Sequence record: NC_041919.1
Length of the DNA: 64,000 nt
Strand: one strand, 5' to 3'
Origin: Escherichia phage HP3
Position numbers and translations under genes: made by a program. Numbering within the stretch: position 1 is the first letter of the stretch; each line of letters opens with the position of its first letter. Below are positions 10,513 to 16,688 of this stretch, piece after piece. Under the pieces are notes generated by a model. The model made no database searches. It saw only the letters and a list, made by a program, of their open reading frames with translations, and was not told the origin of the DNA.

Positions 10513-10828
10513 TATTCGTCCGGTCGATGAGACCGGGCTTTCAGAAAAAGAACTTTCAATTAAGAAAGAAAAGGATGAAATTGCAAAGCTTCTTGACCGC
10601 CAAGAAAATGGATTTATTATTGAAAAAATGGTAGAAGAGTTTGGAATGAGTTATCTTGAAGCTACAACAGCATTCTTAGAAGAAAATTCTATTCCTGAAA
10701 CTCAATTTGCTAAATTTATTCCTTCGGGTATAATTGAAAAAATTCAGTCAGAAGCCATTGACGAAAATCTTTTACGTCCTTCTGTTGTTCGTTGTGAAAA
10801 AACTAATACATTAGATTTTCTACTATGA
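10490..10828 (+). CDS. 33: gp33 late-transcription co-activator
   Basis: 112 aa from ATG 10490 (ORF track starts at TTG 10481); MTQFSLNDIRPVDETGLSEKEL...; between dsbA and 59 as in T4. Confidence 0.85.
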   Translation: MTQFSLNDIRPVDETGLSEKELSIKKEKDEIAKLLDRQENGFIIEKMVEEFGMSYLEATTAFLEENSIPETQFAKFIPSGIIEKIQSEAIDENLLRPSVVRCEKTNTLDFLL

Positions 10829-11478
10829 TTAAACTCCGCATGCCTGCTGGTGGTGAAAGATACATTGATGGTAAATCAGTTTATAAATTATACTTAATGA
10901 TAAAACAACATATGAATGGAAAGTATGATGTTATTAAGTATAATTGGTGCATGCGGGTGTCTGATGCCGCTTATCAAAAGCGAAGGGATAAGTATTTTTT
11001 CCAGAAGTTATCAGAAAAATATAAATTAAAGGAACTTGCTTTAATCTTTATAAGCAATCTTGTTGCTAACCAGGATGCTTGGATTGGCGACATCTCTGAC
11101 GCTGATGCACTTGTGTTTTATCGTGAATATATCGGACGCTTAAAGCAAATTAAATTTAAGTTTGAAGAAGATATTCGCAACATTTATTATTTTAGTAAAA
11201 AAGTTGAAGTTTCTGCTTTTAAAGAAATCTTTGAGTATAATCCAAAAGTTCAATCAAGTTATATTTTTAAACTACTTCAATCGAATATAATTTCGTTTGA
11301 AACGTTTATCTTGCTTGATTCGTTTTTAAATATAATTGATAAACATGATGAACAGACTGATAATTTAGTCTGGAATAATTATTCTATAAAGTTAAAGGCT
11401 TATAGAAAAATTTTAAATATTGATTCACAGAAAGCTAAAAGTGTTTTTATTGAAACTGTGAAATCTTGCAAGTATTGA
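10825..11478 (+). CDS. 59: gp59 helicase (gp41) loader
   Basis: 217 aa; MIKLRMPAGGERYIDGKSVYKLYLMIKQHMNGKYD... matches T4 gp59; start overlaps 33 stop (ATGA). Confidence 0.9.
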   Translation: MIKLRMPAGGERYIDGKSVYKLYLMIKQHMNGKYDVIKYNWCMRVSDAAYQKRRDKYFFQKLSEKYKLKELALIFISNLVANQDAWIGDISDADALVFYREYIGRLKQIKFKFEEDIRNIYYFSKKVEVSAFKEIFEYNPKVQSSYIFKLLQSNIISFETFILLDSFLNIIDKHDEQTDNLVWNNYSIKLKAYRKILNIDSQKAKSVFIETVKSCKY

Positions 11479-11479
11479 T

Positions 11480-12112
11480 ATGAATATAGTATATTGGTTT
11501 ACATTTGAAGACCGTGTCAAAAATAAGACTCCACCGTACTACTATATCGGTAGTAAATTAAATTGCTCATTTGAGAACGGAATAATATATGACTCTTCCG
11601 GAAAGGAATACTGGAGCTCATGTAAACAAAAAAGATTTTTGAATGCGCTAATGCTTCAAAAACCGAGCGTTAAAATAATTCAAATTGATGATGACTTGGA
11701 TGTTATTGAAGCAGAACGAAAATACCAACTTGAAGTAAATGCAAGAGATAATCCAGACTATTTTAATCTGGTATATGCTGGTGGTGGATTTGGTGTGAGT
11801 GGTGAAACTCATCCAGCCAAAGACCCGGAAGTTAGAGAGCATATGAGATTGGCTAATTATATGAACCGTGACGATTTTAGACCTTGGAAAACATCACGAG
11901 CTAATATAGAGTCTTGGAAATTATCTCATATTGCTTACGAGAATTATGTGTTATTATTATCCTCTAATCTGTACGGTAAAACTCCTGGATGGCGAAGAGT
12001 TAAAGGTAATATAAATATAACTGATACAACTGCTAAATCGATGGTAAAGTATTTCAACTTAGGTTGGATACCTCTCGAAGACCCAGAGTATTGCGAATTA
12101 TGCCAGCTATGA
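11480..12112 (+). CDS. GIY-YIG family endonuclease, free-standing homing-endonuclease-like (T4 segG position between 59 and 32)
   Basis: 210 aa; N-terminal IVYWFTF...PPYYYIGSK resembles the GIY...YIG module; occupies the 59/32 junction where T4 carries segG. Confidence 0.6.
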   Translation: MNIVYWFTFEDRVKNKTPPYYYIGSKLNCSFENGIIYDSSGKEYWSSCKQKRFLNALMLQKPSVKIIQIDDDLDVIEAERKYQLEVNARDNPDYFNLVYAGGGFGVSGETHPAKDPEVREHMRLANYMNRDDFRPWKTSRANIESWKLSHIAYENYVLLLSSNLYGKTPGWRRVKGNINITDTTAKSMVKYFNLGWIPLEDPEYCELCQL

Positions 12113-12166
12113 GGTAAAGTGTCATAGCACCAACTGTTAATTAAATTAAATTAAAAAGGAAATAAA
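12108..12166 (+). promoter_or_regulatory. gene 32 translational operator (pseudoknot plus unstructured UUAAA-repeat leader) for gp32 autoregulation
   Basis: TGAGGTAAAGTGTCATAGCACCAACTGTTAATTAAATTAAATTAAAAAGGAAATAAA immediately 5' of the gene 32 ATG; matches the T4 gene 32 leader as remembered. Confidence 0.7.
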
Positions 12167-13072
12167 ATGTTTAAACGTAAATCTACTGCTGAACTTGCTG
12201 CACAAATGGCTAAACTGAATGGCAATAAAGGTTTTTCTTCTGAAGATAAAGGCGAGTGGAAACTGAAACTCGATAATGCGGGTAACGGTCAAGCAGTAAT
12301 TCGTTTTCTTCCGTCTAAAAATGATGAACAAGCACCATTCGCAATTCTTGTAAATCACGGTTTCAAGAAAAATGGTAAATGGTATATTGAAACATGTTCA
12401 TCTACCCATGGTGATTACGATTCTTGCCCAGTATGTCAATACATCAGTAAAAATGATCTGTACAACACTGACAATAAAGAGTACAGTCTTGTTAAACGTA
12501 AAACTTCTTACTGGGCTAATATTCTTGTTGTAAAAGACCCAGCTGCTCCAGAAAATGAAGGTAAAGTATTTAAATATCGTTTCGGTAAGAAAATCTGGGA
12601 TAAAATCAATGCAATGATTGCGGTTGATGTTGAAATGGGTGAAACTCCGGTTGATGTAACTTGTCCGTGGGAAGGTGCTAACTTTGTACTGAAAGTTAAA
12701 CAAGTTTCCGGATTTAGTAACTACGATGAATCTAAATTCCTGAATCAATCTGCGATTCCAAACATTGATGATGAATCTTTCCAGAAAGAACTGTTCGAAC
12801 AAATGGTTGACCTTTCTGAAATGACTTCTAAAGATAAATTCAAATCGTTTGAAGAACTGAGCACTAAGTTCAGTCAAGTTATGGGAACTGCTGCTATGGG
12901 TGGTGCCGCTGCAACTGCTGCTAAGAAAGCTGATAAAGTTGCTGATGATTTGGATGCATTCAATGTTGATGACTTCAATACAAAAACTGAAGATGATTTT
13001 ATGAGCTCAAGCTCTGGCAGTTCATCTAGTGCTGATGACACAGACCTGGATGACCTTTTGAATGACCTTTAA
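12167..13072 (+). CDS. 32: gp32 single-stranded DNA binding protein
   Basis: 301 aa; [49 protein letters not shown]... and acidic C-terminus match T4 gp32. Confidence 0.97.
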
Positions 13073-14267: not shown

Positions 14268-15094
<827 letters not shown>

Positions 15095-15114
15095 AATAAC
15101 ACGTGGCGGAAAAT

Positions 15115-15462
15115 ATGAATTTTAATTATTACCCTATTCTATTAGAAGAAGACGCGAAACAGCCAAAGTGGCAGGGTCCTCAGTTTATTAAAGGTGTCTA
15201 TCAATTAGTAGTTCCTAAAGACAAGATTTATAGCAGTTGTTTCACTGAATCCGCTTGCAGTATTTTCGGTAATAGTTCTCCGTATTGGAATTTTGACATA
15301 AAGCTGGATAGAAATATCGATATTTGGTTGAAAGCTATGGATATTGGTAATATCACGTTTGATGAGAATAATTATCATATTATTGGTCGCTTTTCCAAAC
15401 GCGGTAAAGAATTATATTTCACGCCTGAAATTGAGAGAAAATTTGATGCTAAACCGTATTGA
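15115..15462 (+). CDS. hypothetical protein inserted between frd and td
   Basis: 115 aa from ATG 15115 (ORF track starts at GTG 15103); no motif recognised; sits where T4 frd and td abut. Confidence 0.5.
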   Translation: MNFNYYPILLEEDAKQPKWQGPQFIKGVYQLVVPKDKIYSSCFTESACSIFGNSSPYWNFDIKLDRNIDIWLKAMDIGNITFDENNYHIIGRFSKRGKELYFTPEIERKFDAKPY

Positions 15463-15507: not shown

Positions 15508-16056
15508 ATGAAACAATACCAAGATTTAATTAAAGACATTTTTGAAAATGGCTATGAAACTGATGACCGAACGGGCACAGGAACAATTGCTTTGTTCGGT
15601 ACTAAATTACGCTGGGATTTAACTAAAGGTTTTCCTGCAGTAACAACTAAGAAGCTCGCCTGGAAAGCTTGCATTGCTGAGCTACTTTGGTTTTTATCAG
15701 GAAGCACAAATGTCAATGATTTACGATTAATTCAGCATGATTCGTTAATCCAAGGCAAAACAGTTTGGGATGAAAATTACGAAAATCAGGCAAAAGATTT
15801 AGGATACCATAGTGGTGAACTTGGCCCAATTTATGGAAAACAGTGGCGCGATTTTGGCGGTGTAGACCAAATTATAGAAGTTATTGATCGTATTAAAAAA
15901 CTACCAAGTGATAGGCGTCAAATTGTTTCTGCGTGGAATCCAGCTGAACTTAAATATATGGCATTACCACCTTGTCATATGTTCTATCAGTTTAATGTGC
16001 GTAATGGTTATCTTGATTTACAATGGTATCAACGCAGTGTAGATGTTTTCTTGGGT
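15508..16056 (+). CDS. td: thymidylate synthase, exon 1
   Basis: 183 codons MKQYQDLIKDIFENGYETDDRTGTGT...QRSVDVFLG; reading frame broken by an in-frame TAA at the 5' splice site after ...TTGGGT. Confidence 0.9.
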
Positions 16057-16376
16057 TAATTGAGGCCTAGGTATAAGGTGACTTATACTTGTAATCTATC
16101 TAAACGGGGGACCTCTCTAGTAGACAATCCCGTGCTAAATTGTAGGACTACCCTTTAATAATTTCATCAGGATTAGTTACTTACCGTGTAAAATCTGATA
16201 AATGGAATTGGTTCTACATAAATGCCTAACGACTATCCCTTTGGGGAGTAGGGTCAAGTGACTCGAAACGATAGACAACTTGCTTTAACAAGTTGAAGAT
16301 ATAGTCTGATCTGCATGGTGACATGCAGCTGGATATAATTCCGGGGTAAGATTAACGACCTTATCTGAACATAATG
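16057..16376 (+). ncRNA. group I self-splicing intron in td, lacking a homing endonuclease ORF
   Basis: Starts TAATTGAGGCC..., ends ...CTGAACATAATG with terminal G; conserved td-intron core segments (GGTGACTTATACTTGTAATCTATCTAAACGGGG, CCCTTTGGGGAGTAGGGTCAAGTGACTCGAAACGATAGACAACTTGC, CATGGTGACATGCAGCTGGATATAATTCCGGGGTAAGATTAACGACC); 320 nt, no ORF >= 60 aa in any frame. Confidence 0.85.
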
Positions 16377-16688
16377 CTTCCATTTAATATTGCATCATAT
16401 GCTACGTTAGTTCATATTGTAGCTAAGATGTGTAATCTTATTCCGGGAGATTTGATATTTTCCGGTGGTAATACTCATATCTATATGAATCACGTAGAAC
16501 AATGTAAAGAAATTTTGCGTCGTGAACCTAAAGAGCTTTGTGAACTGGTAATAGGCGGATTGCCTTATAAATTCCGCTATCTTTCTACTAAAGAACAATT
16601 GGAATACATTCTTAAACTCAGGCCTAAAGATTTCGTTCTCAAAGATTATCAGTCCCACGGCGTCTTGAAAGGAAAAATGGCGGTGTAA
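16377..16688 (+). CDS. td: thymidylate synthase, exon 2
   Basis: LPFNIASYATLVHIVAKMCNLIPGDLIFSGGNTHIYMNHVEQ... continues the TS fold; exons 1+2 give 286 aa, as in T4 TS. Confidence 0.9.
   Translation, partial: LPFNIASYATLVHIVAKMCNLIPGDLIFSGGNTHIYMNHVEQCKEILRREPKELCELVIGGLPYKFRYLSTKEQLEYILKLRPKDFVLKDYQSHGVLKGKMAV

Follow-up and report, generated by a model that had tools for sequence, protein, structure and literature searches.

The free-standing seg genes of T4 form the closest described system to the locus examined here. SegA-F and SegG have in common that they are free-standing, lie between conserved genes, cut at a distance and bring about marker exclusion; SegG is unlike the others in having gene 32 as its target and in carrying a different C-terminal domain. 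T4 segG encodes an active GIY-YIG endonuclease, is inserted between genes 32 and 59, and has its target in gene 32 (PMC2988022, citing Liu, Belle, Shub, Belfort & Edgell 2003, J Mol Biol 334:13). When T4 is crossed with T2, it is SegG that excludes the gene 32 markers of T2, and free-standing endonucleases cut hundreds to thousands of bp away from their own insertion site. In the same review segG figures as a promoter-less endonuclease cassette and, elsewhere, as one transcribed from a promoter at the 3' end of the gene before it; the review locates the gene 32 promoters, middle and late, within segG, describes RNase E processing of the segG-32 transcript, and reasons that an endonuclease gene is more readily kept when such promoters are embedded in it (PMC2988022). 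The segG frame extends into the 5' part of the pseudoknot in the gene 32 operator (PMC535899). The SegG enzyme, where it is encoded, which gene it targets and its part in T2/T4 marker exclusion have been known since their publication in 2003.

The window analysed here is a stretch of 64,000 nucleotides from Escherichia phage HP3 (NC_041919.1). It contains an ORF that is segG of a T4-like phage (Tequatrovirus), an already characterised homing endonuclease. We have very little doubt that its product is a free-standing two-domain homing endonuclease that homes by cutting gene 32 in segG-less relatives. The window copy is one residue from published T4 SegG and carries little weight as a discovery. 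What is new is minor: the invisibility of the SegG family to standard GIY-YIG HMMs, the canonical Arg that was not recovered, and a measured tract of population linkage. Our own observations concern identity to T4 SegG, synteny, the boundaries of the polymorphism, the fold, the motif residues and a one-sided linkage to gene 32.

The ORF between genes 59 and 32

The segG ORF occupies 11480..12112 on the plus strand, with an ATG start and 210 codons plus a stop. Its upstream neighbour is gene 59, for the helicase loader (10825..11478, +; Pfam T4_Gp59_N 1.1e-53, T4_Gp59_C 4.6e-52), and downstream lies gene 32, for the single-stranded-DNA-binding protein (12167..13072, +; Pfam gp32 1.5e-66). All three genes share one orientation, and both flanks were checked by Pfam. 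The gene 59 stop is 1 nt from the segG ATG, and the segG stop is 54 nt from the gene 32 ATG, so that the initial annotation of a 210-aa ORF with these gaps was exact in its coordinates. The GIY-YIG-like motifs it had quoted are likewise found in the N-terminus, IVYWFTF as residues 3-9 and YYYIGSK as residues 20-26.

That annotation had also rightly pointed to segG at this junction in T4 and proposed an alignment with T4 SegG. The T4 reference annotation has the same order, namely 59, SegG ('site-specific DNA endonuclease; GIY-YIG family') and 32, and the ORF product aligns with T4 SegG (NP_049855) without gaps and with 209 of 210 residues identical. The sole difference, S194L, falls inside the C-terminal domain at a position that varies among SegG homologues, with Leu also in P0013. 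At the DNA level three synonymous sites and one non-synonymous site differ from T4. T4 SegG (gene 32.1) has the same length, the same position between 59 and 32 and the same 1-nt gap as the window copy, and shares with it the overlap with the gene 32 pseudoknot and an embedded TATAAATA.

The PHROG match is to phrog_7504, 'homing endonuclease' (2.5e-133). The stretch from gene 59 through the ORF to gene 32 is 100% identical to that of Escherichia phages HP3.1 and HP3.2, and its identity to many Tequatrovirus genomes is 98.6-99.2%. Proteins at least 95% identical to the ORF product occur in 139 phage records, and SegG homologues are detected down to 33% identity. Given the identity to T4 SegG, these records and the distant homologues, the ORF is not a chance reading frame. 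No paralogue of the SegG family was found elsewhere within the 64-kb window.

SegG-family genes occupy the same 59/32 junction in Dhakavirus Bp7, Gaprivervirus UPEC07 and Moonvirus KM16. These genes and the junction gene of Klebsiella phage Hyena_ER38 have the same orientation and encode 205-220 aa. The junction genes of other Tevenvirinae are all annotated as homing endonucleases and are 34-58% identical to SegG. The Klebsiella-phage type represented by Hyena_ER38 has its N-terminal ~120 residues in common with SegG but a different, Cys-containing C-terminal domain.

A divergent GIY-YIG nuclease domain

An AlphaFold2 model, for which 31 homologues served as input, has a mean pLDDT of 89.9 and consists of two confident domains with a low-pLDDT linker between them. 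The N-terminal GIY-YIG-type nuclease domain spans residues 1 to ~103 (11480..11788, +), the flexible linker residues ~104-115 (11789..11824, +; pLDDT <50 at 104-107, mean 54 at 101-110), and an all-helical C-terminal domain, which holds L194, residues ~116-210 (11825..12109, +). Strands in the N-terminal domain are modelled at 2-8, 21-26 and 63-70, and helices at 51-59 and 75-85. The GIY and YIG motif residues fall on two of these strands, VY5W on 2-8 and Y22-I-G24 on 21-26. The absence of a GIY-YIG fold from a predicted structure had been named beforehand as grounds for giving up the nuclease assignment; the modelled N-terminal domain has that alpha/beta fold, and its best structural match is the catalytic domain of I-TevI. 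Foldseek against the PDB placed I-TevI third, at a non-significant E of 1.4. Against viral models it returned 23 matches at E<=1e-3, and 13 of the 17 with names were homing endonucleases or Seg-like/NUMOD/GIY-YIG proteins. A BFVD match, T4 P04523 ('DNA replication protein'), we take to be the old gene 69, that is, SegF. The C-terminal domain structurally resembles HTH regulators and is presumed to act in DNA binding or target recognition. Homologue architectures part ways from the linker onward, and the SegG-like N-terminal domain recurs joined to several unlike C-terminal modules.

Sequence models were far less responsive. Neither Pfam, including GIY-YIG PF01541 (E up to 1), nor NCBIfam (E up to 10) gave a relevant match to the single SegG protein, phmmer of SegG against all PDB sequences gave no GIY-YIG match, and a profile of 31 homologues gave no match in the PDB. 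An exhaustive profile search then widened the family to 535 cluster representatives at E<=1e-3, 135 of which were aligned. Run against the PDB, the 135-sequence profile matched solely the DNA-binding (NUMOD3) region of I-TevI, which is missing from SegG; hhalign of SegG-family alignments against full-length I-TevI likewise aligned the NUMOD3 region and not the nuclease domains. The model PF19835, SegE_GIY-YIG, is matched by 9 of the 135 relatives (best E 3.3e-4), with SegG itself below threshold both there and on PF01541.

Residues of the motif are nevertheless close to invariant across the 135-sequence alignment: Y5 (131/131), Y22 (134/135), G24 (135/135) and K26 (133/135), and further along Y44 (134/135), S47 (133/135), E79 (134/135) and N96 (134/135). 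A global alignment of SegG 1-105 with I-TevI 1-97 has z=3.9, a score attained by 0 of 300 shuffles, and pairs Y5 with Y6, Y22 with Y17, G24 with G19, E79 with E75 and N96 with N90. The equivalents of the catalytic Glu (I-TevI E75) and the structural Asn (I-TevI N90) are therefore the near-invariant E79 and N96. NUMOD3 motifs occur in 85 of the 135 relatives, and others carry NUMOD1 or the I-TevI DNA-binding domain. For comparison, I-TevI structures are available for the catalytic domain (PDB 1LN0/1MK0) and for the DNA-binding domain (1I3J).

The SegG family departs from I-TevI at R27, the helix Arg, for which it has no invariant Arg at the matching place. SegG R52, near the helix-1 Arg of I-TevI in the alignment, is replaced in relatives by G, L or E, and details of the active site may therefore differ. 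Conserved basic residues lie elsewhere, at K26 and at R12 (110/123), the latter on a short helical insertion that separates the GIY strand from the YIG strand. As modelled, the N-terminal domain of SegG is a divergent GIY-YIG fold without a recovered equivalent of the R27 Arg. It is conceivable, and in our judgement rather unlikely, that the SegG/SegE-like branch has a rearranged active site in which a beta-hairpin at 30-37 replaces the R27 helix and R12 or K26 supplies the charge; such an arrangement would explain why standard GIY-YIG models miss the SegG family. A real GIY-YIG enzyme can escape standard sequence models, which calls for caution in automated annotation.

The silence of the Pfam GIY-YIG model, NCBIfam and PDB sequence searches, together with the lack of a conserved counterpart of the canonical Arg and the likeness of the C-terminal domain to HTH regulators, would also suit a conserved protein that is no nuclease, such as a regulator that binds DNA to control gene 32 expression and resembles GIY-YIG only superficially at its N-terminus. 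We regard this as extremely improbable, since the I-TevI catalytic domain is the best structural match, the catalytic Glu and structural Asn have invariant equivalents, relatives carry the homing-endonuclease modules NUMOD3, NUMOD1 and I-TevI_DNA-bd, and endonuclease activity has been published for T4 SegG (PMC2988022). The distribution of the gene, described below, speaks against it as well.

Insertion boundaries and linkage to gene 32

Eight Tequatroviruses, T2 (AY310907, the T2 sequence deposited with the SegG study) and seven others, lack segG and have gene 59, a spacer of 99 nt or 113 nt, and gene 32. In anchored alignments, homology between the window and T2-type sequences stops right after GCAAGTATT, at the end of gene 59, and restarts at CCAGCTATGAGG, from 12103 onward. 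Between these points the window has about 625 bp where T2-type phages have about 50 bp of spacer. The gene is thus polymorphic for presence and absence at a fixed site between conserved genes. Records with a protein at least 95% identical number 139, as compared with 506 that have a closely similar gene 59 end, and segG is missing from about three quarters of close relatives. It is therefore not a core function, which argues against the reading as a regulator, and the conserved non-nuclease gene that the initial annotation had allowed for as a way to be wrong is not borne out.

Linkage between segG and neighbouring alleles was compared in 17 phylogenetically related Tequatrovirus genomes, nine with segG (the window, T4, SHFML-26, NBEco003, F25, G2540, SfPhi01, PST and RB6) and eight without (T2, ZCEC15, fFiEco06, slur14, RB32, HY03, PP01 and CrRp10). 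The tract co-inherited with segG, by allele-frequency difference between the two groups, is 12113..12530 (+). The difference is 1.0 at 12114-12120, 12218, 12219, 12223 and a GGT indel after 12229, 0.76-0.89 at 12196, 12393, 12394 and 12409, and about 0.5-0.6 at 12439-12529. Past ~12560 it is 0.3 or less at nearly every site (0.51 at 12622). On the other side, informative sites in gene 59 and upstream have differences of at most 0.57, with 0.18 at 11469, 8 nt off the junction. The sole linked base there is stop-codon position 11477, which is perfectly linked to segG: gene 59 ends in TGA in the window and in TAA in segG-less phages.

The linkage tract, a population-level proxy and not a cross, is thus one-sided in this small sample of 17 related genomes and is roughly 300-450 nt long, with tight linkage over the first ~300 nt of gene 32, as expected of co-conversion from a break inside that gene. 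From the decay of linkage, the likely region of SegG cleavage is about 12390-12560. The T4 enzyme is reported to cleave about 330 bp from its insertion site. Part of the linkage could stem from co-adaptation between the operator and the N-terminus of gp32 and not from co-conversion. The pattern illustrates that a free-standing homing gene can drag a defined stretch of about 300 nt of its neighbour along in natural phage populations.

Gene 32 of the window is itself a mosaic. It is T4-like to about 12540 and T2-like from 12580, with the switch at ~12540-12580, so that its 3' half differs from T4; alleles shared with T2 in the region 12580-13042 include those at 12580, 12583, 12649, 12709, 12859-12868, 12894-12907 and 13018. 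The annotated length of gene 32 also varies. It is 1179 nt in the Citrobacter phage CrRp10, apparently through a 3' extension or fusion, and 834 nt in ZCEC15, where the gene is diverged and the C-terminal acidic region shorter; elsewhere it is 906-909 nt.

For the window copy, nuclease activity, target gene, homing and marker exclusion would carry over from the T4 SegG literature. With high probability segG spreads by intronless homing to relatives without it, and does so by way of a double-strand break made in their gene 32. The protein would probably be made by low-level translation from a polycistronic 59-segG-32 mRNA, as suggested by a start 1 nt after the gene 59 stop and the lack of an evident Shine-Dalgarno sequence. 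In a mixed infection with a segG-less phage of T2 type, SegG would make a double-strand break in gene 32 of that phage, some hundreds of bp away from the unoccupied 59/32 junction. The cut genome would then undergo resection and be repaired by recombination with the segG+ genome as template, acquiring segG along with the operator and the 5' portion of gene 32. Homing with co-conversion of this kind would lead to exclusion of T2 gene 32 markers.

Gene 32 control elements and the wider neighbourhood

The locus is a clean example of a homing endonuclease gene entangled with an essential neighbour, through the gene 32 promoters and the translational operator. The T4 late-promoter motif TATAAATA lies in segG at 12010..12017 (+), about 150 nt upstream of gene 32. 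Two candidate middle promoters were read by eye with the consensus generally known for T4 middle promoters: a MotA-box-like AATGCTTCA followed by a 12-nt spacer and TAAAAT (11650..11676, +), and a weaker candidate, ATTGCTTA ... TATTAT (11930-11957, +). A generic scan for sigma-70 promoters and terminators gave 9 sites as compared with 7.8 expected, T4 middle and late promoters being outside its models. The short T2-type 59-32 spacer also contains TATAAATA and TTGCTTA motifs.

The gene 32 operator pseudoknot spans 12101..12128 (+), as assigned from folding, alignment and the published overlap with segG (PMC535899). Stem 1 pairs UGCC (12101-12104) with GGUA (12113-12116); stem 2 pairs GCUAUGA (12106-12112), which includes the UGA stop of segG, with UCAUAGC (12122-12128), and folding predicts this hairpin. 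The last codons of segG, UGC CAG CUA UGA, thus provide the 5' strands of both stems. The initial annotation had put the operator immediately downstream of the ORF; the operator does continue past the ORF, but the 5' strands of the stems lie within the last 12 nt of it (12101-12112, stop included). Stem 1 differs by haplotype, with UGCC/GGUA in segG+ and UGACC/GGUCA in segG- phages, both strands changing together. When 11300-12400 was compared with Rfam in search of a family for the gene 32 operator, the sole match was a chance one to a Drosophila scaRNA, far under the gathering score, and Rfam has no curated family for this pseudoknot.

Beyond the pseudoknot, an A/U-rich unstructured part with UUAAA-type repeats and a Shine-Dalgarno sequence completes the operator (12129..12166, +). 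The 5-nt repeats (AAUUA/UUAAA-type, 12134-12166) vary in number among phages, and the pseudoknot anchor and the ATG are 58-76 nt apart, with the greatest distance in HY03; this variation could tune cooperative gp32 binding. The A-run directly ahead of the gene 32 start codon is shorter by 1 nt in the window, and in most segG+ phages, than in T4.

The sequence GCGAAUUAU at 12093-12100 lies 17 nt ahead of the segG stop, with the gene 32 ATG 71 nt downstream of it, and is presumably the '-71' site at which RNase E processes the gene 32 transcript. A cut at GCGAAUUAU would leave segG mRNA without a stop codon. NBEco003 and RB6, both segG+, have GCAAAUUAU in its place.

Insertion of segG has displaced the original 59-32 spacer. 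A late-promoter motif of gene 32 has thereby come to lie inside segG, with the last codons giving one strand to each pseudoknot stem, and simple deletion of the element would therefore be costly. A late-promoter motif and part of the pseudoknot inside the ORF, the argument that embedded promoters favour endonuclease gene retention (PMC2988022), and the S194L change from T4 in the putative DNA-binding domain could all be taken to mean that segG here is a domesticated or decaying remnant, kept for the gene 32 promoters, the RNase E site and half of the operator pseudoknot, with a nuclease that is no longer active. We find this highly improbable. The ORF is intact and keeps all near-invariant motif residues, its differences from T4 are the three synonymous sites and one non-synonymous site noted above, the residue that changed varies in homologues and is Leu also in P0013, and the T4 protein, one residue different, is experimentally active (PMC2988022). 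The tight linkage of segG to gene 32 in natural isolates also fits continuing homing, and an active homing endonuclease remains the reading that we prefer.

A difference in mobile elements from T4 lies further downstream. The thymidylate synthase gene td (15508-16688) is split by a compact group I intron of ~282 nt at 16047-16328 (Rfam RF00028, 70.3 bits). The T4 td intron carries the 245-aa I-TevI ORF; the window intron is without it, though segG is kept. Two ORFs of this neighbourhood are missing from the T4 annotation: one of 81 aa between frd.1 and frd (14268-14513; PHROG 3183, unknown function, 4.4e-43) and one of 119 aa between frd and td (15103-15462; PHROG 1928, unknown function, 9.3e-36). 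The genes frd and td overlap in T4, whereas a gap of ~414 nt separates them in T2.
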